From positions 1 to 64,000 of IMG/VR virus record IMGVR_UViG_3300038429_000225: 64,000 bases of DNA; one strand, given 5' to 3'. Position 1 is the first letter of the stretch. Every line of letters begins with the position of its first letter. This document shows positions 3,058 to 61,460 of this stretch, piece by piece. This DNA is from a virus. Position numbers and translations under genes: made by a program. The notes below the pieces were generated by a model. It ran no database searches. It was given only the letters and a program-made list of their open reading frames with translations, and had not been told where the DNA came from.

Positions 3058-3390
3058 TTACTTCACAAACTTGATTTTGCCACCATCGATCTCATAGTGG
3101 CCCACGCCGCAATCGCCCTGGCAGGATGCCGTGGGGTATGCTTCCGTGGGCTGGTTCTCGTACGCATGGCCCTTGGACGGAATCACCTTCTCGCCCTTCT
3201 CCATTTCGTACAGACCGGTTTCTTGGATCGTTCCGCCTTCGTGCATCTTGCCCTTAACCCTCTTGAGCTTCGGGTTCGCGCGCTTGGCGGCTGGACTGGC
3301 TTTGCGTGAGGCATTCGCTAAGATGGCGCCTGCGCTAGCCATGCTGTGACCTTGGCCTGCAATTTTCTTTTGAACTGATTTGAAACTCAT
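3058..3390 (-). CDS. Small basic protein with MHxGG...GExVxP motif
   Basis: ORF track. The N-terminus FKSVQKKIA...AGAILA is typical of small phage virion-region proteins. Confidence 0.6.
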   Translation of the reverse strand: MSFKSVQKKIAGQGHSMASAGAILANASRKASPAAKRANPKLKRVKGKMHEGGTIQETGLYEMEKGEKVIPSKGHAYENQPTEAYPTASCQGDCGVGHYEIDGGKIKFVK

Positions 3391-6435: not shown

Positions 6436-6993
6436 CTATTTAACTGAATCAAAATGACTAACTACGGAACGGCAGGCGGCGACGAAGTCTTCGACGGACA
6501 TCTCCAACTTCATAAAATTACACCGCTTGCAACACGAAACGCAATTGTCGGTTGTGTAGCCAACTGAACTGTCTTTTCTATCTACACCGTTGTAGACATA
6601 AGGGCCGTTGTCTCTCTTGCCTTGCTTCAATTGTGACGGTTCGGCTCCGCAATAAAAACACAACCTTTTCGTAAGTACGAAAAATTCTTCTTTCGTCAAA
6701 TCAAACGAAACGCCCCTATCTTTCGCTTCATAGCGGTAAGAATGGAACAATCTTGTTTTTGACGATTCTCCAGAAGGAAGAAGGTTTAAGTTTCTTGCTG
6801 ATTCTTTCTGCAAACACCCACAACTTTGTGTATCTCCGTTTCTCAACCGCCAAGTCGTAACTTCGGCTTCATTTCCACAATCACAGACACACTTCCACAG
6901 TCTGCTTCCTCCACGATTTTTACCACTAATCTCTTTGACTTCTAGTCTTCCAAATTTTTTACCTAGAAGATTTATAGTTTTAATTGCGTACAT
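6436..6993 (-). CDS. HNH homing endonuclease (FGRL/WxCxCxCG N-terminus)
   Basis: GKKFGRL...WKCVCDCG...SCGC and CFYCG...NGVDRKDS..GY..DNCVSCC..CN.MK. Start at 6993 after GGAGGA. Confidence 0.9.
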   Translation of the reverse strand: MYAIKTINLLGKKFGRLEVKEISGKNRGGSRLWKCVCDCGNEAEVTTWRLRNGDTQSCGCLQKESARNLNLLPSGESSKTRLFHSYRYEAKDRGVSFDLTKEEFFVLTKRLCFYCGAEPSQLKQGKRDNGPYVYNGVDRKDSSVGYTTDNCVSCCKRCNFMKLEMSVEDFVAACRSVVSHFDSVK

Positions 6994-7053
6994 TGGTTCC
7001 TCCGACAAGGAATCGGAAAGGGGCTGGTGTCGGCCAGCCCCAAGCCTATCGAT

Positions 7054-7088: not shown

Positions 7089-9367
7089 TTAGGAAATCCC
7101 AGAAAGCGCATCAATTAATCTTAGGCGCTGAGTGGGGTCTGGCGGCAAAGTCACTGTGAAATGAACCTTATATGATGTCCAACCTGGTATCAAACCTTCG
7201 GGATCCGACACGCTCACTGGCGCGTTCTGAATCACGTTGCACTTGATACCGCGGTAATTCCCGTCGCCGTACGCCGTGTCGCCACGACCCGCCAGGTTAA
7301 TGGCGATGACGCCGTCGCGTCCGAAGATGTAGGTCCTCAGAGCGGTGGAGCCGGTCGTTTTGTAGTTGGTCGTGGTGGTGACGAGGTTCGTCTGGAAGAA
7401 GTCAACTGCGGTTCCTGGGAGTTCGAAAACTTCCGTGAGATCCGCGCTGGGCAGTTCTTCCATGCGCATCAGGCCTTCCGACGTGTGCTTCAATACGTCG
7501 ATTGGGCTGTTATTGGAGGTGTCATTAATCGCGTCGCCCCATGCGAAGGGGTGAACGATCCCGGCAAACCGCTTTTTGCCCTCGATGAAGGGCTTGATGC
7601 TGCGGCCGGCCATCGACTGAATCGCTGCGCGAATCGTGCCGATGGAAAGAGACGTGAAGCTGGAACTTGAAGCAGCGGCCAACTTGATAGCCACAGAGCT
7701 ATCGATCGCGGGCGCGCCGTCGCAAGTCAGACGGACCAAGGACGAGAGAGACTGACCGAGGCGATAGGAGAATTCCTTCGCGACGTTGGCCAGAGTGTCG
7801 TCGATTGCGGTCGCAAGAGCAAGGCTCGAGAACGACGCATAATCGGCATCAATGTGTGTTTAGGAAGCCTGTGTCACCACAGGTTCGCTCTCATGGTCGC
7901 CCATGAGTTCAGACTCTATCTTCAACTCAGGATTTTGATCCTGAGTGCTTGACATATTAGTCGTTGGGGTTTTTCCACTATTAAGTGAAATCATCTTAGT
8001 CCAAAGTTCTGCTCGTTTCTGTGGATTCACTTTCCCACACAACCGAATAAACTCAAGACCAACGTTTGCTTGATCTCTCTTAATAAGCATATAAGGGATG
8101 ATCCCGATAAGGAACATTTCTATTCGGGTATAACCTCCGGTCACGAACCATTCGTAACACTGGTGTTTCCCGAATTTCCCTTTCTGCTTCGGTCGGAATT
8201 CACCGCCGAAGTTCTTCACCAGCCACTTCATCAGTCTCACGCTAATGTTAGCGATGGAAACTTTTAAGTCATAACCGAAATACGGTTTGCCACTTGAAGT
8301 GTACAAGGTGGTCCGACTGAGGAAAACTCCTCCTTCGGCGTCAACCATTGCGGCGACGTAAGACCACTTCGTTTTACTGATTTGCATTTGGAATCTTACC
8401 TCCGTCTCTTATGCTGCCAGCTTTAACTGTAGCATACTTTGACGGATATAGTCAAGTTTTTGTTTAGGTGAGCTGACGATTAACTCACCGATGGTGGAGG
8501 TGTTGGTGACCAAGCTGGCAGCCTGACCGGGGCCAGGGGTGCCTTCTGTGGCTTGGACGATATTGGCACCGAACGTGTTATATTCAAATCAATTTTGTTT
8601 AGGAATCCTGTGTCACCACAGGTTCGCTCTCACGATTGCTCGTGATGTTCAGACTCTATCTTCACCTCAGGAGAGGTGTTTGACGTATTAGTCGTTAGGG
8701 ATGATTCTCCCTGATTGAGAAACTTCATTTTCTCTTCTAATCGTTTTCGGATCTCTGGGACTTGTGAATTTCCAAGTCTTACAAACTCCAGAGCGACTTC
8801 GGCTTGTTCCCGTTTTATGATCAAATAAGGAATGACTCCAAGTAAAAATCTTTCCTTGTTTGCTCGCCCCGAGATAGTCCACTTGTGAATCGGACGACTG
8901 TATGTCTTTGTCCAACCAGAAGGGTTGTTATCTCGAGAATAGAACGTTCCGCCAAAATTCCCCAACAGCCACTTCATCAGCTTAACAGACGTTCCATAAA
9001 TTACAATCTGAAGTCTGTAGCTTCCGCCAGCGACGTCGGCCTTATGAATAGATAGAGAACCTTCTCCATCAAGTATCCCGGCCACATACGGCCATGCATT
9101 CTTTTCCATCTGAGAATCCTTTCCTCGGTATTGTCTGATACTCATAATATCAGAGTTTCACCGATTTAGTCAAATTTATTTATACTCGAACCTATTTGAT
9201 TAAAGCACGAGTTGGTTACCAGAGTTAAGGGGCAGATCACGCCGTTCCGCGCAACGCACGAAGGGCGTCTCAGCCTTCAGGTTCTCAACGAACTGCTTGT
9301 CATAAAACAAGACGGTAGATTGAGGCAAATTCCCGGTCACGTTAGACGCGGGAAATCCGAGAGACAT
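7089..9367 (-). CDS. Major capsid protein, N4-gp56-like, in three exons (9204-9367, 8483-8589, 7089-7849; 343 aa spliced)
   Basis: The joined exons total 1032 nt and read in one frame: MSLGFPAS...FYDKQFVENLK...LPLNSGNQLVL|FEYNTFG...ATEGTP...TIGE|YADYASFSSLALATAIDD...GIVHP...TYIFGRD...DPEG..GWTSYK. The gene lies directly after the scaffold gene. Confidence 0.88.
7850..8482 (-). mobile_element. Group I intron 2 in the capsid gene (633 nt)
   Basis: P1 is exon GGUGAGU paired with GCUCACC, ending in a U.G pair. Terminal G at 7850. UAAUCG pairs with CGAUUA in the 3' exon. Core elements AACGACUAAU and AAGAUAGAGUCUG are present, and P3 is UUGAC/GUCAA. Confidence 0.9.
7860..8387 (-). CDS. Intron-encoded single-motif LAGLIDADG endonuclease
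   Basis: YVAAMVDAEGGV, L...FGG, I.PYM.IKR.QA. Confidence 0.9.
   Translation of the reverse strand: MQISKTKWSYVAAMVDAEGGVFLSRTTLYTSSGKPYFGYDLKVSIANISVRLMKWLVKNFGGEFRPKQKGKFGKHQCYEWFVTGGYTRIEMFLIGIIPYMLIKRDQANVGLEFIRLCGKVNPQKRAELWTKMISLNSGKTPTTNMSSTQDQNPELKIESELMGDHESEPVVTQAS
8590..9203 (-). mobile_element. Group I intron 1 in the capsid gene (614 nt)
   Basis: P1 is CUCGUGCU paired with GGUUCGAG, with U.G at 9204. P10 is UCAAAU with AUUUGA in the 3' exon. Terminal G at 8590. The core elements match intron 2. An in-frame TAA follows exon 1 immediately if unspliced. Confidence 0.9.
8630..9109 (-). CDS. Intron-encoded single-motif LAGLIDADG endonuclease
   Basis: YVAGILDGEGSL, LMKWLLGNFGG, VIPYLIIKREQA. 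Clearly paralogous to 7860..8387. Confidence 0.9.
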   Translation of the reverse strand: MEKNAWPYVAGILDGEGSLSIHKADVAGGSYRLQIVIYGTSVKLMKWLLGNFGGTFYSRDNNPSGWTKTYSRPIHKWTISGRANKERFLLGVIPYLIIKREQAEVALEFVRLGNSQVPEIRKRLEEKMKFLNQGESSLTTNTSNTSPEVKIESEHHEQS

Positions 9368-9408
9368 GGTGGATATTTCCTTGTAATACAGGGTGTGCGC
9401 GGATTACG

Positions 9409-10728
9409 TTAGAGCTTGCCGTCCGCGATCAACTTGTCGACAGCCGCCTTGAATCCCAAGTCGGTTTTGTACCTGCGACGCGTCTCGCTAACGGACATTC
9501 TGTTGTATTCCTCGACGGTCAGCCCCACGGATGGTTCGGGCCTCGAACCAGGCCTAACACTTGCCTGACGCGGAGATAGCCCTGTGGATGCAGACCCTGG
9601 TCGCAACCTGCCCACTTCCACGACTGGCGCGGCGGCGGGTGGTGTGACCTTCGATACTGGTGTTACGACGGGCGCTTCTGCGCTCGCCGGTGTTACGGCT
9701 GCGGCTACCAGTGCTGCTGGATCCGCGGCCGACGGTAAAGCGACTACAGGAGCGGGTAGCTCCCTTCGCTCAACCGGTGTTGAAACTCTAGTTGGAACTT
9801 CGCCCTTTTCTTTCAACATACCAAGGGCCTTGTTCAAATTGCGAACGGTGTAATCCCAATTACTTTCAGCAAGGATTACATCCATCTTGTCGCCGAGTTC
9901 TTTGCTGAACTCGACATCAGAATGCTGTTTCATAAACAACTTGGCAGTTGCGAGATAACTCGCCCTGTCAAGCTGTGCTTCACTGGTCACCACACGGGTG
10001 ACAATTTCTTCGGCAGGGGCGCCGAATCGAATGCGGTCTCTCCTCTCGAGCGCCTTATTGACGCGTGAAGGATCACCGGATTTTAGATCTTCTGCAATTT
10101 CAAACTGCTCATCAGCCGTCAGAGCCCGAGGCTCCAACTTTTTACGAGGTGAAGCAATATCGGCCGGCTGTTCAAGAAGCAGTTGGTTGTTCTCTTCTTG
10201 CTGTTGACGAATTTTGGCAGTCGCATTCGCCTGCGCGTCCAAAATCTTCTGGCTCAATTCGTCTTTCGTCTTTGCGAACCAAACCTGTTCGCCCGATCCA
10301 TCAATCGCTTCAACACGCGCTTCCCATCCGCCCTTCACCTTCGTGTAAGGTCCGGACTTCGTTCCTTCCTCTTCTTCAGTCGGTACAACTGGCGCCGGAG
10401 GCTCCGCGATTACTACCGCCGGTTCTGCCGCTGCGACGGGCGTCGGAGGGGCCGCGACAATCTGCTCTTCAACAACGGGTGGTGTGGCGCCAGAGGCGTC
10501 AACCACAACCGCGGGAGCAAGCAAGAAAGCTTCGAGAGCCGTCTTGTACTCCAGATTACTTCGCAAATTACGAACCCGATCCGACGGCAGATTGGCCCAA
10601 TCGTATTTCACTTGCTCGTTCAAATCGGTGAATAGGGGCCAGCCGTTCGGATAACCGGGGGTATTTTCTGACTGCTTTGTATCTGCTGGGACTTTACCCA
10701 GCGTGATTAGTTCTTCAACGCTTTTCAT
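9409..10728 (-). CDS. Probable capsid scaffolding protein
   Basis: Acidic, P/A-rich and helical, with a C-terminal LTVEEYNRMS motif. It lies between the portal and capsid genes. Confidence 0.6.
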   Translation of the reverse strand: MKSVEELITLGKVPADTKQSENTPGYPNGWPLFTDLNEQVKYDWANLPSDRVRNLRSNLEYKTALEAFLLAPAVVVDASGATPPVVEEQIVAAPPTPVAAAEPAVVIAEPPAPVVPTEEEEGTKSGPYTKVKGGWEARVEAIDGSGEQVWFAKTKDELSQKILDAQANATAKIRQQQEENNQLLLEQPADIASPRKKLEPRALTADEQFEIAEDLKSGDPSRVNKALERRDRIRFGAPAEEIVTRVVTSEAQLDRASYLATAKLFMKQHSDVEFSKELGDKMDVILAESNWDYTVRNLNKALGMLKEKGEVPTRVSTPVERRELPAPVVALPSAADPAALVAAAVTPASAEAPVVTPVSKVTPPAAAPVVEVGRLRPGSASTGLSPRQASVRPGSRPEPSVGLTVEEYNRMSVSETRRRYKTDLGFKAAVDKLIADGKL

Positions 10729-10812
10729 AACACTATCTCCTGGTGGTGTCAATCCGACACAACACTGATTAGATGTTTGGTTCTTTCTCCGTTTTCGTAG
10801 CTTTTAATCCAG

Positions 10813-10983
10813 TTACAACTTGGCCTTGACCGCTGCCACGAGAGCCTTGACTTCCGCGACCACCGATCCTTCGACCTTGACGAGCTCTGCCTTGACGGCC
10901 GCAAGCTTGGCTGCGTTCTTCACGCGGCCGGCTGCGAAACCAAGGCCGAGAGCAACTACCAATGCGACGACTTCGTAAACCAT
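10813..10983 (-). CDS. 56-aa membrane-anchored protein (absent from the ORF track)
   Basis: AAGGAG RBS. Reads MVYEVVALVVALGLGFAAGRVKNAAKLAAVKAEL... Confidence 0.6.
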   Translation of the reverse strand: MVYEVVALVVALGLGFAAGRVKNAAKLAAVKAELVKVEGSVVAEVKALVAAVKAKL

Positions 10984-10993
10984 GATATTCTCC

Positions 10994-11386
10994 TTATTCG
11001 GGTTTGAATTCCTTTTTGACTTGATCTTCCAGCGAAGTGCCTAAAAGATCTTTCTTCTGCTTGATAAACTCCACTTCACCAGAAAATTCTTCCATCTGCC
11101 GAGTACACTCATTCTGAATGCGCTCGAAAAATATTCGCGCGGATACGGCAAGAAGACCGGTACGCTCAAACTCTTCCTTATTTTTCCAGTTCTGAAAGTG
11201 AGATGTCTCAAGCTTTTCAATTTCGCCTTGCGACAGCTTCATCCAGACCTGATAGGCAGGAGTCCCGTACCAGTTTGCCAGCGTGACTTTTTCGGTAGAC
11301 GAAAGTTTAAGGAATCGTGGATCCCTCATCGCAATCGGAACTTGTAACCCTTCGACCGGCCCTGTTTCGAATTCTTCGATTTCCAT
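10994..11386 (-). CDS. Hypothetical portal-adjacent protein
   Basis: 130-aa ORF with a GGAGG RBS. Confidence 0.6.
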   Translation of the reverse strand: MEIEEFETGPVEGLQVPIAMRDPRFLKLSSTEKVTLANWYGTPAYQVWMKLSQGEIEKLETSHFQNWKNKEEFERTGLLAVSARIFFERIQNECTRQMEEFSGEVEFIKQKKDLLGTSLEDQVKKEFKPE

Positions 11387-11414
11387 GAGATTCCTCCCGG
11401 AAGCTCGCTACTTA

Positions 11415-13550
11415 TTACGCTGGCATGCCTTCGGCATTGCCACCAAATCCTGGGCCCCCGGGTTCTCCGGTTACTGCTTCTGGTTCTCCGGCTTTTTCGA
11501 GAGAGTGGCGGATAATATCCCCCGCCGCACGCTGTGTCCACGCCTGATCCTGTAACTGGGATTTTGCCTGGAACTTTTGATCGTTGTTGGCTTTCTGTGC
11601 TGCCATCTTGGCCGCTGCCGGATTGTTAGCAGCACGTTGCGCCTTCATCTCCGGAGTCAACGGACGAAAGATCGAATAATACTGCGAACTGCCATAACCA
11701 CTGACGTCTGTCAGCATGTGGAGCAATTCGGAGAAGGCGATGTACTCGCCATTGATGTCTGCGATCTGACCTGCGAGGGCCGGGTTCGTGAAGTACTGCA
11801 TGATCAGCGGCATGGACTGGGCCATCTGCTGACGGGCCGCCATGTGGCTGCCGGCGAGCACACTGAACCGCTTGATGCCATTCTTACTGCCCATGAAGTC
11901 ACGGAAGCTGGCCTTGTAATCTTTTCCGAGTTGTTCGTTTAGAATTTCTTTGTACACCGAGGCCGGAAGGAACATACGATTCAAATCGTAGATCTTCCAC
12001 AGCCACGGCTGGAACACCTGGCGGTTGAAGTCTTCAACCAATCCGCCGATACGATCTACGGCCGCTTGCATCATGCCGCCTGCGCCTGTAGCTGTACGCC
12101 CCATCGAAGAGCCTCGACCGCTAGGTTTAGACGCGCCCATGGTAAGCATTTCATTGGCGCCGGAAGTCGATTCGGTACGCGCTTCGGAAGCTGCGACCAC
12201 CTGGAATAACTCTTGCTGAATCTTTGGAAGGTCCAGCGGATGAAGCGCTTTCGTTGCGTCTCCGTCAACGTCGATGAAGCCGCCCAGGCGAGCCCGGACT
12301 TGCTGCGTGTTAATATTGGCGCCGCGCGAACGGACTATCGGTTGATTGGCTGACAGAGTGCCGATATCGGCAACCGCATTGATGAACCCTTGCTGCAGCC
12401 GCTGCTCGCCGCCGAGCGCGGTCCCGAGGCCGATGCCCCAGAAACAATCTTGAATCATCCACCAGTTCACAGAATAGAACGGTATGCAACCAAACATATT
12501 TGGCTCATTACGAATGACGCGCTGACCGGCCAGGACTGTGATAATCTTGTCGCGGTCCCAACGTTCTTGAATAAGCAAAGGTTCGTTGAGAGGATCGTCG
12601 GTCGTCTTCGCAAACAAAGGAGCCGCGTGCTGCACAAACTGTGTATTATTCTGGCCCGAAGTCATATTCTGACCGGCGATTGCCTGACTTTGGTCGGCTG
12701 CCGCGGGCGTCTCGAACCAAGATCTAATCGTCGATTCGTCTGGCAAATTGTAGCGATAAATCGGTTCGTTCTTTTCGTTGTAGTAAACTTCGTCCTTCCA
12801 CTTAATTATGTCACGATACGTGACCGGAAATTCATGAATGACGAACTTGGCTTCACGAATATCGGGAACGCGCGTACCCGGGTCCACCAGGACCGTGCGG
12901 ATGTCACAATTCTCGAAATACGGATGCGATACCAGCCGCTCCGTTCTGACCATACGAAACTTGTCTTGGTCGGGCGTCGGTAATTCCTCAATGTTTCCGT
13001 CTGCGCCTGTAGTTGTGAGAGATTCATGAACCGGTTGGAAATCCCAATCGGTTTCGTAACGATCTTTCCAACCCCACTTCCAAATACCGGTGCCATTGAG
13101 CAAACAGGAGAAAAGCCCATACTTTACTTCCTGCTTGAAATTCATTTGATCCAACTGATATGCCGTCAGTTCTTGAATAGCACGCGCCATATTAGCTGAA
13201 ATGCTAGAACGAGATTCAAGTTTGAACGGAGGTTCTTCATAGAACATTCCGCCTACAAGTTTCGAATTGATAGCATTGACGTGCGTCGCAACCGTAAATT
13301 TGGCGATGTTCGCCTTGGGCATCGAGGTGCCTTCCCAAACGCGAAGCGTCGGGGGCGATTGGTACAACAGGTCGATTTCTATCCACCGAATATTGAAATA
13401 ACGGCTTTCAATCCACGCGCGGGTAAATTTCGAGTCCAGAGTAACCAGTTTTAGCGCAACATCATCACTTACTTCCTCAGGACTGAAAACTTCCTTGAAG
13501 TTCAGCAGCCCCGAGCTCGACGTACCGGGGAGAGGTAGAACTGGTGCCAT
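11415..13550 (-). CDS. Portal protein (P22/podovirus-like)
   Basis: 711 aa, following TerL. Motifs GTGIWK.GW, DP, IPF, F.G.G.G, E..SG, TATG. Confidence 0.8.
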   Translation of the reverse strand: MAPVLPLPGTSSSGLLNFKEVFSPEEVSDDVALKLVTLDSKFTRAWIESRYFNIRWIEIDLLYQSPPTLRVWEGTSMPKANIAKFTVATHVNAINSKLVGGMFYEEPPFKLESRSSISANMARAIQELTAYQLDQMNFKQEVKYGLFSCLLNGTGIWKWGWKDRYETDWDFQPVHESLTTTGADGNIEELPTPDQDKFRMVRTERLVSHPYFENCDIRTVLVDPGTRVPDIREAKFVIHEFPVTYRDIIKWKDEVYYNEKNEPIYRYNLPDESTIRSWFETPAAADQSQAIAGQNMTSGQNNTQFVQHAAPLFAKTTDDPLNEPLLIQERWDRDKIITVLAGQRVIRNEPNMFGCIPFYSVNWWMIQDCFWGIGLGTALGGEQRLQQGFINAVADIGTLSANQPIVRSRGANINTQQVRARLGGFIDVDGDATKALHPLDLPKIQQELFQVVAASEARTESTSGANEMLTMGASKPSGRGSSMGRTATGAGGMMQAAVDRIGGLVEDFNRQVFQPWLWKIYDLNRMFLPASVYKEILNEQLGKDYKASFRDFMGSKNGIKRFSVLAGSHMAARQQMAQSMPLIMQYFTNPALAGQIADINGEYIAFSELLHMLTDVSGYGSSQYYSIFRPLTPEMKAQRAANNPAAAKMAAQKANNDQKFQAKSQLQDQAWTQRAAGDIIRHSLEKAGEPEAVTGEPGGPGFGGNAEGMPA

Positions 13551-13560
13551 TGTGTTTCCT

Positions 13561-15567
13561 CTATCGTTTGAATCCTATCGGGGTGTATGGGTCGTAGAGC
13601 TCTTCACCGGCTGTGTCGCCGGTGCCGGGTTCTGGAACAATAGGTAACTCATTCGTTCCTGGAGCATAATCACCCTGCCCAAATATCAGGTCATAAAAAT
13701 CTTTCTCGCGGAGAATGCGATCGAATTCCTTCTGACGGTCTCTGCCGCCAGGGCCACCGGGCTCCGTGGTTCCGGTCGGAATGATTCGATGAATGTGACT
13801 GATCGTATCCGGAATGTCGTCATGAAGCGAAGTCCCGAAATCTTTAAACTCTTTGTAGAGATCTTCAAGACACGAAATCGTGTTCAAAAAGAATAACTGT
13901 CCCCCGTAAAGAAGCGGTTGTAGGGCACCTACACGGGACGCTTTAGCGTTCGGAGAACGATCAACCTTGAAGAAGTCCAACGGGATGTACTCAGTTCCTG
14001 CCTCTAAGGCGTACTGACGAATTGAGCGCTCCAAAAACTGGGCCCCGTTCGAGTTCTCGATCAGAACCAGACGCGGGTGATATTTCTGAAATGACGAAGC
14101 AATTTCTTTCGCCAGATCATTGTCAAGATAATGGTCTCTAAAAATTTCCACTACATACACACGATTTTCTATGTCAAGGCCAACCACGGCACCGACTGAA
14201 TAATCGTTCTTCTGGTTTACTGCGTACGCAAAATCCCAAATGATATAGTACTGAAGTTGATGCGGAATGGCGTTCAACCCAACCGTCCGCTGGAGCATAA
14301 GATCCACCGTGAACTTGATCTTACGGGTGCCCGCCGTACTCAACATGTACTGCGAGAGATAGACCGCTATGTCTTTCTTCTTCTTCCTGTCGAGAAACTT
14401 GTGATCCAACTTCACGCGACCGGTCTTGTCTTTTTCAAACAACAACTCATAATCGGCTGGCGTGCAATCACGCTCATCCTTGTGAATCATCTCGGGCCGC
14501 AACCAGCGAGCCGGAGTAATCAAAACCTTCAAATCGCCCGGATGCAAAACGCTTTCGACTGTATGAGCATACAAATCACCAGGAGCATACGGCGTTCCCA
14601 GAAGGTCTTTGTATCCGCCTGGGTCAACCAGCGACTCGGCATAATTGATCTTCCGAATCACCTTGACTACGAGCATCGAAGTATCGGTGTTCTTGTCGTT
14701 AACGACGTCGTCGCCCTTCATCAAATCGCAGTGCCAACCCGGCAAGTTCGATAGAATCGATGATGCCCAAGCCGATGGATCCCTTTTCTTTTCGTCGCCT
14801 ACTGTTCGGCAAGGACAAATGAATTCGTCCTCGATGCCTTCATTCTTGCGAGTGAGATTCCACTCTGGAAATAATTTCTGAAAAATCGTGCCATCCGCAT
14901 TATCGGGAACCAGAAAATAGTTCTTAAGTTCCCCAATGAACGCGACCGCCAAACCAGACTCGGCCGTAAGAATCAAAATACGAATGTTTGGAAGATTGAT
15001 AAACCACTGCACGCAATCAACCACGTTAATCGTAGACTTGAAACTTCCGCGAGGATACAGCAAAAGACGTTCTTTCGTCTCATCCTGCTCTTCGATCTTC
15101 TTCGACGGATCCTTCTGCACGAAAAAATTACAGACAGGCGCGTGCGTTAGGAATGTGAAGTCTTTGTTGAAAATCTCACGGCCCAGAAACAACAAATTCG
15201 TCCGGCACATGAATCTCAAGAAATCCGTCGTTGACGTCGAGCTTGGACACTTTTTCTGATCTACCCACAAATCTTTGCCGCTCGAATCTTTTCCTTTGTG
15301 CTTAAGGCCTAAAATTTCCAATCGCCGAATCGAAGAATCAATGTTCTCATTAGAACCTGCTTCACCATATGCAGCCATCACCATATCAAACGTGATGTAA
15401 TTCTTCGCGCGTATAACTAATTCGTCAAACGTTTTCGGAGCGGGGCCCGCAAGATCACGATCTGCCACTTTCCAGAAATGCTTGATAGACAATTGGTCGC
15501 CGGCTTTTGCAGCTTCGGCTTTACCCTCGTTAAGTAAATAATCAATAGTCCAAATTGGTTCCGACAT
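13561..15567 (-). CDS. terL: Terminase large subunit
   Basis: Walker A PRGSFKST, G.H.D...DD, GTPY...DLY, nuclease WDFAY...DYS, IE.NG.Q, K..R, HDDIPD. Confidence 0.9.
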   Translation of the reverse strand: MSEPIWTIDYLLNEGKAEAAKAGDQLSIKHFWKVADRDLAGPAPKTFDELVIRAKNYITFDMVMAAYGEAGSNENIDSSIRRLEILGLKHKGKDSSGKDLWVDQKKCPSSTSTTDFLRFMCRTNLLFLGREIFNKDFTFLTHAPVCNFFVQKDPSKKIEEQDETKERLLLYPRGSFKSTINVVDCVQWFINLPNIRILILTAESGLAVAFIGELKNYFLVPDNADGTIFQKLFPEWNLTRKNEGIEDEFICPCRTVGDEKKRDPSAWASSILSNLPGWHCDLMKGDDVVNDKNTDTSMLVVKVIRKINYAESLVDPGGYKDLLGTPYAPGDLYAHTVESVLHPGDLKVLITPARWLRPEMIHKDERDCTPADYELLFEKDKTGRVKLDHKFLDRKKKKDIAVYLSQYMLSTAGTRKIKFTVDLMLQRTVGLNAIPHQLQYYIIWDFAYAVNQKNDYSVGAVVGLDIENRVYVVEIFRDHYLDNDLAKEIASSFQKYHPRLVLIENSNGAQFLERSIRQYALEAGTEYIPLDFFKVDRSPNAKASRVGALQPLLYGGQLFFLNTISCLEDLYKEFKDFGTSLHDDIPDTISHIHRIIPTGTTEPGGPGGRDRQKEFDRILREKDFYDLIFGQGDYAPGTNELPIVPEPGTGDTAGEELYDPYTPIGFKR

Positions 15568-61385: not shown

Positions 61386-61460
61386 GTGGCCCAAGCCAAA
61401 CGGTGCGGCGCCTGACTGTGGCTCAGGTTCTACCGGGTTCGACTCCCGGGGGTCACTCCA
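61386..61460 (+). tRNA. Divergent tRNA-His(GTG) with encoded CCA
   Basis: Acceptor GTGGCCC/GGGTCAC, D stem GCC/GGC, anticodon arm CCTGA-CTGTGGC-TCAGG, T arm CCGGG-TTCGACT-CCCGG, then TCCA. Confidence 0.8.

Follow-up and report, generated by a model that had tools for sequence, protein, structure and literature searches.

The DNA analysed here is a 64,000-nt stretch of a virus (IMG/VR record IMGVR_UViG_3300038429_000225, positions 1 to 64,000), which we refer to as the window. Its minus strand carries, between 9367 and 7089, a gene that appears to encode the major capsid protein of a phage, and we conclude with high confidence that this gene is interrupted by two mobile, paralogous group I introns, which lie 107 nt apart and harbour LAGLIDADG nucleases. 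The interval consists of three pieces of a single gene. Joining 9367-9204, 8589-8483 and 7849-7089 yields a frame of 1032 nt, made up of 343 codons and a stop, and rebuilds two split codons, CT/A (Leu55, junction 1) and T/AT (Tyr91, junction 2), where the slash marks the junction. An earlier, sequence-only reading of this DNA had proposed a capsid gene split by two introns with these same codons rejoined into a 343-aa frame, and its coordinates proved exact. The exons and introns are as follows.

9204-9367, minus strand: capsid exon 1, 164 nt (codons 1-54 and the first two bases of Leu55)
8590-9203, minus strand: predicted group I intron 1, 614 nt
8483-8589, minus strand: capsid exon 2, 107 nt (third base of the Leu55 codon, codons 56-90, initial base of the Tyr91 codon)
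7850-8482, minus strand: predicted group I intron 2, 633 nt
7089-7849, minus strand: capsid exon 3, 761 nt (second and third bases of the Tyr91 codon, codons 92-343, stop codon)

Exon structure and identity of the host gene

The joined protein aligns without gaps through both junctions with fifteen full-length, uninterrupted homologues (MAFFT), an outcome that the sequence-only reading had named as a check on its proposal. Identity to the closest uninterrupted homologue, P0001, is 53/54 residues over exon 1, 32/37 over exon 2 and 231/252 over exon 3. A homologue search with exon 3 alone found 370 proteins (best E 4e-148), and 55 of the best 120 of these 370 are exactly 343 aa long. Both junctions are located inside strongly conserved motifs, NQLVL/FEY and TIGE/Y/ADY, and the residues I88, G89, E90, Y91, A92 and D93 are invariant over 40 capsid homologues. 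The exon upstream of each intron ends in U, and the last base of each intron is G (8590 and 7850). For intron 2, the protein alignment leaves a single solution for the boundary. For intron 1 it permits one alternative, shifted by one base, and only the boundary 9203-8590 satisfies the rule that the exon ends in U and the intron in G. Exon 1 starts at ATG 9367-9365, with AAGGA located 11 nt upstream.

Among 50,697 phage records, the only match to the protein was gp6 of Tunturiibacter phage Tunturi_3, annotated as 'major head protein', which is 65% identical, 343 aa long and uninterrupted. In Tunturi_3, the terminase and portal genes precede gp6 by a few genes, and the large open reading frames (ORFs) ahead of the window's capsid gene follow this order too. 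The host of Tunturi 3, a podovirus with a 97.6-kb genome, is an acidobacterium from tundra soil, and the paper describing this phage makes no mention of introns. Several homologues carry the JGI name 'N4-gp56 family major capsid protein', and the nearest clusters in the ESM Atlas are Phage_capsid_3/4 and 'Major capsid protein' (score 0.98). Judged by annotation and gene order, the host gene appears to encode a phage major capsid protein, and the source soil phage is probably a podovirus. Its relationship to Tunturi_3 makes Tunturiibacter or other Acidobacteriota candidate hosts.

RNA architecture of the two introns

Both inserts bear the hallmarks of group I introns that the sequence-only reading had listed, a U.G-ended P1, a terminal G and a conserved core. 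The search with Infernal and the Rfam group I model (RF00028), which that reading had suggested, recovered both of them by E-value: for intron 2 the score is 38.5 bits, with E 1.1e-7 when the region is searched and 2.8e-6 when the search covers the whole window, and for intron 1 it is 31.7 bits, with E 1.2e-5 and 3e-4, respectively.

To model the family from its own members, we used an ORF-less insert of 229 nt at capsid codon 271 in the related contig L030, which scores 62.5 bits in Rfam, above the gathering score. The resulting covariance model, R1, consists of this single sequence and a hand-drawn structure. R1 was built from one sequence, and the helix tables by anchored scripts, because MAFFT misaligned two ORF-less relatives at P5, P6a and P8. 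In the 64-kb window, R1 found exactly four matches, all of which are in the two introns. Two correspond to the 3′ domains (7848-8062, 85.4 bits, E 2.8e-25; 8587-8781, 58.9 bits, E 9e-17) and two to the 5′ domains (8252-8461, 25.5 bits; 8995-9179, 21.3 bits).

Comparison within the family gave further evidence for the fold. The comparative set comprised twelve introns at eight capsid codons; the intron of contig L006 is a near-duplicate of intron 2 of the window, leaving 11 non-redundant introns, to which the following pair counts refer. All pairs of P3 and P4 (66/66 in each) and of P6 (33/33) are canonical, with compensatory double changes at 5/6, 2/6 and 2/3 positions, respectively. In P7, 52/55 pairs are canonical, with compensatory double changes at 1/5 positions; this helix has a bulged base and a covarying closing pair, either A-U or G-C. 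When one strand was slid by a single base as a control, canonical pairing fell to 35-55% and double changes were almost nil. The hairpins P8, P9 (with GNRA loops) and P9.1 (with a GUGA loop) are present in every intron tabulated, formed from differing sequences. J8/7 reads AAGAUAG and is followed by the 3′ strand of P7, AGUC. The exact 17-nt core motif, the only feature for which a chance control was calculated, occurs twice in the window against 0.04 expected.

At all eight insertion sites, the guides of the twelve introns are complementary to the 5′ exon that precedes them, and P1 ends in U.G in all tabulated introns except that of L023, whose P1 is weak and mismatched and follows an exon ending in C. 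In intron 1 of the window, the exon sequence ACUCGUGCU pairs with the internal guide sequence GGUUCGAGU (9192-9184) over nine positions, of which one is mismatched and the terminal one is U.G. Its P10 is a clean 6-bp pairing between UCAAAU (9199-9194) and the start of exon 2, AUUUGA. In intron 2, exon sequence GGUGAGU pairs with GCUCACC (8473-8467, the internal guide sequence) at 7/7 positions, again with a terminal U.G. Both window introns are without P2 and without P7.1/P7.2. As the sequence-only reading had noticed, their 3′ ends are nearly identical: they agree throughout J8/7-P7′ and P9.1, and P9 differs by compensatory changes. With helices and covariation in agreement, we classify both inserts, by sequence, as group I introns with a P3-P9.1 core and a predicted P3/P7 pseudoknot. 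The elements assigned to each intron are listed below.

9192-9184, minus strand: intron 1, 3′ strand of P1 (internal guide sequence)
9199-9194, minus strand: intron 1, P10 guide
9174-9169/8684-8679, minus strand: intron 1, P3
9164-9159/9130-9125, minus strand: intron 1, P4
9155-9148/9140-9134, minus strand: intron 1, P5
9124-9112/8709-8699, minus strand: intron 1, P6/P6a
8695-8690/8655-8651, minus strand: intron 1, P7
8678-8663, minus strand: intron 1, P8
8662-8656, minus strand: intron 1, J8/7
8644-8631, minus strand: intron 1, P9 (GCAA loop)
8622-8607, minus strand: intron 1, P9.1 (GUGA loop)
8590, minus strand: intron 1, terminal G
8456-8451/7953-7948, minus strand: intron 2, P3
8446-8441/8406-8401, minus strand: intron 2, P4
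8437-8427/8420-8410, minus strand: intron 2, P5
8400-8389/7977-7968, minus strand: intron 2, P6/P6a
7964-7959/7915-7911, minus strand: intron 2, P7
7946-7925, minus strand: intron 2, P8
7922-7916, minus strand: intron 2, J8/7
7907-7890, minus strand: intron 2, P9 (GCGA loop)
7883-7868, minus strand: intron 2, P9.1 (GUGA loop)
7850, minus strand: intron 2, terminal G

Intron-encoded nucleases and intron mobility

Each intron contains one nuclease ORF, inserted in the loop of P6a.

8630-9145, minus strand: LAGLIDADG ORF of intron 1, 171 aa from ATG 9145
7860-8387, minus strand: LAGLIDADG ORF of intron 2, 175 aa, with GGAGGU upstream of ATG 8387

In intron 1, the true start is, by alignment, likely to be Met13 at 9109, giving a protein of 159 aa; this codon lies 7 nt after a Shine-Dalgarno sequence, GGAAAGGA, in P6/P6a. 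In both introns, the Shine-Dalgarno sequence (GGAAAGGA or GGAGGU) is at the same time the 5′ strand of P6/P6a. The sequence-only reading had stated that each ORF runs through the catalytic core into P9, and the refined structures bear this out. The ORF of intron 1 stops at UGA 8632-8630, the 3′ end of P9, and its last ~27 codons double as P6a′-P6′-P7-P3′-P8-P7′-P9. The ORF of intron 2 crosses the entire 3′ core (P6a′ to P9.1) and ends at UAA 7862-7860 in a CCUAAAC tail, 10 nt from the 3′ splice site; most ORF-bearing relatives likewise stop 7-11 nt before the splice site. The nucleases share a C-terminal peptide, roughly ..TTN.S...PE.KIESE.., which, owing to this overlap, is ribozyme sequence in translation. 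A translating ribosome and a folded ribozyme would therefore be mutually exclusive on one RNA.

The two ORFs are paralogous, as had been proposed, with 41% identity (E 1e-36). A single-sequence phmmer search of the PDB with the intron-1 ORF found I-MsoI and I-CreI (E 6e-7). A6, a profile of ten members of the nuclease family including the intron-2 ORF, matched I-MsoI, I-CreI and I-CvuI at E 1e-26 to 1e-10 over profile positions 3-144, nearly the whole domain. In the Pfam family LAGLIDADG_1 (PF00961), 8/10 members match at E up to 1 (best 4e-9). The motifs of the two nucleases are YVAGILDGEGS and YVAAMVDAEGG, with an Asp that aligns with the motif Asp of I-CreI, and both this Asp (GILDGEGS) and a Lys (PYLIIK) are invariant in the ten family members. 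We take the Asp (D20 in I-CreI) and the Lys, which both align to I-CreI, to be catalytic. On these sequence matches, we assign the nucleases to the single-motif LAGLIDADG enzymes of the I-CreI/I-MsoI type; having a single motif, they are presumably homodimeric. PHROG 5046 also matches both ORFs (intron 1, E 5e-18; intron 2, E 8e-14); the label of phrog_5046, 'HNH endonuclease', was rejected on the PDB and Pfam profile evidence for LAGLIDADG. A search of NCBIfam with the two ORFs returned nothing useful.

A third homing-type nuclease is present at the capsid locus. A free-standing HNH endonuclease gene (window 6436-7008, minus strand) lies 80 nt downstream of the capsid stop, matches phrog_374 (E 3e-22) and has CX2C...CX2C motifs.

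Related phages differ in which introns they carry. P0012, encoded on an ENA contig of independent origin, matches the joined protein of the window at all but 3 of 239 residues and runs uninterrupted over junction 2, so that, judged by its sequence, it is a natural allele without intron 2. The capsid gene of L006 has intron 2 at the identical site and is without intron 1, and those of L004, L005, L007 and L008 are without either. Compared with its L006 counterpart, intron 2 of the window has 92.9% identity and no gaps, and the flanking exons have only 76-85%; this greater conservation of the intron than of the exons around it indicates mobility. The nuclease of intron 2 and its L006 copy differ by 27 synonymous and 12 non-synonymous codon changes (pN/pS ~0.12). 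Both introns are present in L049, an independent IMG/VR record of the same phage, which is collinear with the window at 99.1-99.9% identity over 7767-15552. Close to insertion site 1, at a distance of 5 nt, is a 22-bp pseudo-palindrome with 8/11 symmetric pairs, the best of ~1010 positions in the capsid coding sequence and a hint of a possible cleavage target; the same scan found nothing comparable at insertion site 2.

These observations suggest how the locus would function. On the late pre-mRNA, the guide of each intron would pair with the end of the upstream exon to form P1, placing the U.G at the cleavage site. The intron would then fold its P3-P9.1 core without P2, bind guanosine in P7 and excise itself at the terminal G, which would restore the codons for Leu55 and Tyr91. 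The nuclease gene in the P6a loop would be translated from the ribosome-binding site in the 5′ strand of P6/P6a, to give an enzyme that is presumably a homodimer. With the last 27-45 nuclease codons forming ribozyme P6′-P7-P3′-P8-P7′-P9(-P9.1), translation and folding would exclude one another. When relatives without the introns co-infect, the nucleases most likely cut their capsid alleles at the two highly conserved insertion sites or close to them, and such cutting would drive copying of the introns (homing). The two introns are paralogues, one lineage having colonised a second site in the same gene; the paralogous ORFs and the near-identical 3′ ends accord with the earlier suggestion of one lineage at two adjacent sites. 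That the two splicing steps gate late expression, as was also suggested, is speculation.

If the introns are removed in this way, both ribozymes must be efficient and in register, as the coat protein is needed in hundreds of copies per virion, and skipping of the 107-nt exon would shift the capsid reading frame. The locus thus offers a natural test bed for how tandem, near-identical ribozymes avoid cross-splicing, for how a coding sequence and a catalytic core share 100-130 nt, and for how a single intron lineage is re-targeted to new sites in one gene.

Alternatives, known systems and the wider intron family

Several observations weigh against this interpretation. Both window introns score under the Rfam gathering score (50 bits); at that threshold Rfam finds no intron match in the window, and only the E-value mode reveals the two. 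We attribute the low scores to the ORF insertions of ~400 nt. Splicing itself is predicted from the DNA sequence. The sequence-only reading had reported a P10 pairing in each intron, and this holds well for intron 1, but the P10 of intron 2 is weak, consisting of either 3 adjacent base pairs or a 6-bp pairing (UAAUCG/CGAUUA) displaced 4 nt into exon 3. The frame of the upstream exon continues for 26 codons into intron 2 before a stop, so ribosomes on unspliced RNA could disturb P1-P5. For the nucleases, a Pfam scan at E up to 0.1 matched neither ORF, and the intron-1 ORF alone had no LAGLIDADG match even at E up to 1. The capsid label leans on the annotation of relatives, on a sub-threshold match to NCBIfam TIGR04387 and on language-model neighbours. 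The TIGR04387 score of P0001 is 51.2 bits (E 1e-13), which does not reach the curated cutoff of 60, and exon 3 alone has no match to this model; we describe the predicted capsid protein as N4-gp56-like and do not file it as a member of TIGR04387. An AlphaFold2 model of P0001 from a 40-sequence alignment reached a pLDDT of only 32, which leaves the fold unconfirmed. The low value stems from an alignment that is too shallow, as all of its members are at least 63% identical. Compared with PDB sequences, the capsid profile has a sole match, weak and N-terminal, to 'B2 Capsid' 9d82 (E 0.003).

The sub-threshold Rfam scores and the predicted status of splicing would also fit decayed introns that no longer splice, leaving a capsid pseudogene in a defective or dead-end phage genome picked up by metagenomic sequencing; moreover, three related introns elsewhere seem to be without the terminal G, so some members of the family may be impaired. 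We nevertheless consider decay improbable here. All core helices of both window introns are intact and fit the covariation of the family, the U.G and the terminal G are present in both, and the exons are free of frameshifts and stops and share 86-98% of their residues with intact homologues. Furthermore, the nuclease is under purifying selection, and the same arrangement recurs at 99% identity in the independent contig L049. That contig also speaks against an assembly chimera of reads from different phages, to which the probable metagenomic source of the DNA would lend itself: L049 holds both introns in a collinear segment at 99.1-99.9% identity over 7767-15552, a local misassembly is thereby ruled out, and L006, a diverged phage, holds intron 2 at the identical site. 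We regard a chimera as extremely improbable.

Splits of phage genes by homing endonucleases exist, and the ribonucleotide reductase gene of Aeromonas phage Aeh1 is reportedly one such case, going by the title of a 2007 article by Friedrich et al. On the Aeh1 model, the three capsid fragments would be translated separately and then assemble, with no splicing. This is very unlikely for the window gene: exon 2 encodes 35 residues and has no ribosome-binding site, its sole in-frame start being a TTG at Leu81; both splits interrupt a codon; and each insert possesses a complete group I core and an exon-matched guide. An HK97-like coat protein made of three separate chains also seems implausible. LAGLIDADG domains are common in inteins, which raises the alternative of in-frame insertions that are read through and then either excised from the protein or accommodated in it as loops. 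Such insertions are refuted by in-frame stops, as the capsid frame meets UAA one codon into intron 1 and a stop after 26 codons in intron 2. The nuclease ORFs also have their own starts and Shine-Dalgarno sequences, intein splice blocks are absent and it is the RNA structure that is conserved, so we give this alternative hardly any weight.

Capsid-gene group I introns are themselves already published. The background given in the sequence-only reading, that phage group I introns mostly sit in DNA-metabolism or terminase genes and usually carry GIY-YIG or HNH nucleases, was therefore incomplete, as it left out the capsid introns of Tuc2009 and LittleE (PMC3706429). In mycobacteriophage LittleE, the major capsid gene is interrupted by an 819-bp insert, probably a group I intron, whose LAGLIDADG-like ORF is antisense; its splicing was proven by reverse-transcription PCR and N-terminal sequencing, and related phages are without the intron (PMC3706429). 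The window locus resembles it in having a capsid-gene intron, an exon ending in U, an intron ending in G and a LAGLIDADG-like ORF. In contrast to LittleE, an actinobacterial siphovirus with a single intron and an opposite-strand ORF, the window has two paralogues 107 nt apart, whose sense-strand ORFs extend over the 3′ half of the ribozyme, and its splicing is predicted from sequence. For lactococcal phage Tuc2009, a group I intron in a capsid subunit gene is cited (PMC3706429). Tuc2009 reportedly differs from the window phage in its low-GC Gram-positive host and its single intron.

Several related introns in one phage gene, with short internal exons, are reportedly also found in orf142 of Staphylococcus phage Twort, which is said, in work by Landthaler and Shub dated 1999, to have three group I introns and to show exon skipping. 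Two introns as similar as those of the window would run the same risk of losing the exon between them. Twort differs in its host gene, and its nucleases are not known to be LAGLIDADG enzymes. For the nucleases, the closest known systems are I-CreI, I-MsoI and I-CvuI, which are encoded by introns of the 23S rRNA gene in green-algal chloroplasts. These enzymes (PDB 1g9y, 1m5x and 5a74) are likewise single-motif proteins of ~160-175 aa, and their native chains match the A6 profile at E 1e-12 to 1e-10. They differ in that the window nucleases reside in a phage protein-coding gene and have a C-terminal tail dictated by the ribozyme sequence.

Intron endonucleases can also act in competition between phages, as described for gp210 of PhiPA3 (PMC11620839). 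By analogy, a homing endonuclease in an intron of an essential phage gene could cut the allele of a co-infecting relative. PhiPA3 gp210 itself is said to be an HNH enzyme in the RNA polymerase gene of a jumbo phage. Introns can be numerous in a single phage, with a mean of 18.5 per genome in the Jug phages (PMC12880540).

The window introns belong to a large and apparently undescribed family. In a limited library, we found no literature on this intron family or on a Tunturi_3-like capsid gene as an intron hot-spot, which leaves its novelty unproven. A window-type capsid protein is encoded in 34 IMG/VR contigs, and many of these genes are interrupted at other codons; introns of the window type occur at capsid codons 23, 32/33, 53-58, 91, 188 and 271, and the family as a whole occupies some ten or more capsid codons besides those used in the window. 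The exact 17-nt J8/7-P7 motif is present in 99 IMG/VR stretches, 60 of which also carry a capsid homologue, with most such genes split. In L045:2489-5963 (minus strand) and L051:4075-7549, a 38%-identical capsid homologue contains at least 9 intron cores of the window type within ~3.5 kb. Seven of these cores are ORF-less and 130-195 nt each, and mini-exons of tens of nucleotides are recognisable by translation. We know of no phage gene reported to have as many group I introns. In L035:2515-3823, a micro-exon of 27 nt (3173-3199, encoding KQFIENLKA) lies between LAGLIDADG-bearing introns at codons 23 and 32, and the same gene has a third intron at codon 188.

The family is not strictly capsid-specific, given that R1 also matches eleven viral contigs (L065, L114, L088, L071, L077, L086, L087, L046, L095, L067 and L042) in which tblastn found no homologue of the window capsid protein; they are among 39 IMG/VR loci that have the motif and no such homologue. 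About 1/3 of the database capsid homologues begin at residues 46-57, a pattern that would fit gene calls cut short directly behind an intron. Gene callers truncate such capsid genes, and capsid-based phage taxonomy and marker searches in soil viromes will therefore miss or mis-size these genes.

A broader scenario may be put forward tentatively, and we hold it with less than even confidence: that this is an undescribed group I lineage, apparently specialised in one phage gene, which spread to ~10 or more codons of a ~1-kb capsid gene across soil phages, probably by repeated re-targeting of guide and nuclease. The nucleases might then serve as weapons against intron-less alleles, and the overlap of ORF and core might couple nuclease translation inversely to maturation of the capsid mRNA.

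Some relatives depart from the common pattern. According to the protein alignment, the last intron base in L015:780-1010, L031:1933-2942 and L035:4292-4952 is A and not G (..AAAUA/C); these introns either have an unusual 3′ end or are impaired. The intron at L031:1933-2942, 1010 nt long and located at codon 32, encodes a 306-aa ORF with two LAGLIDADG motifs that spans the P6 and P8 regions. This double-motif enzyme is presumably monomeric and may be a fusion product that arose inside the single-motif family. A second intron type, with the 3′ motif GCAGAAAUGAC, occurs in relatives at capsid codons 53, 292 and 316, as follows.

L011:4677-4911: second intron type
L012:4620-4854: second intron type
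L017 and L029, codon 53: second intron type
L031:4606-5434: second intron type

Elsewhere in the window, the Rfam tRNA model is silent, both at the gathering score and at E up to 0.01, over 61386-61460, where ARAGORN calls a tRNA-His (GTG).

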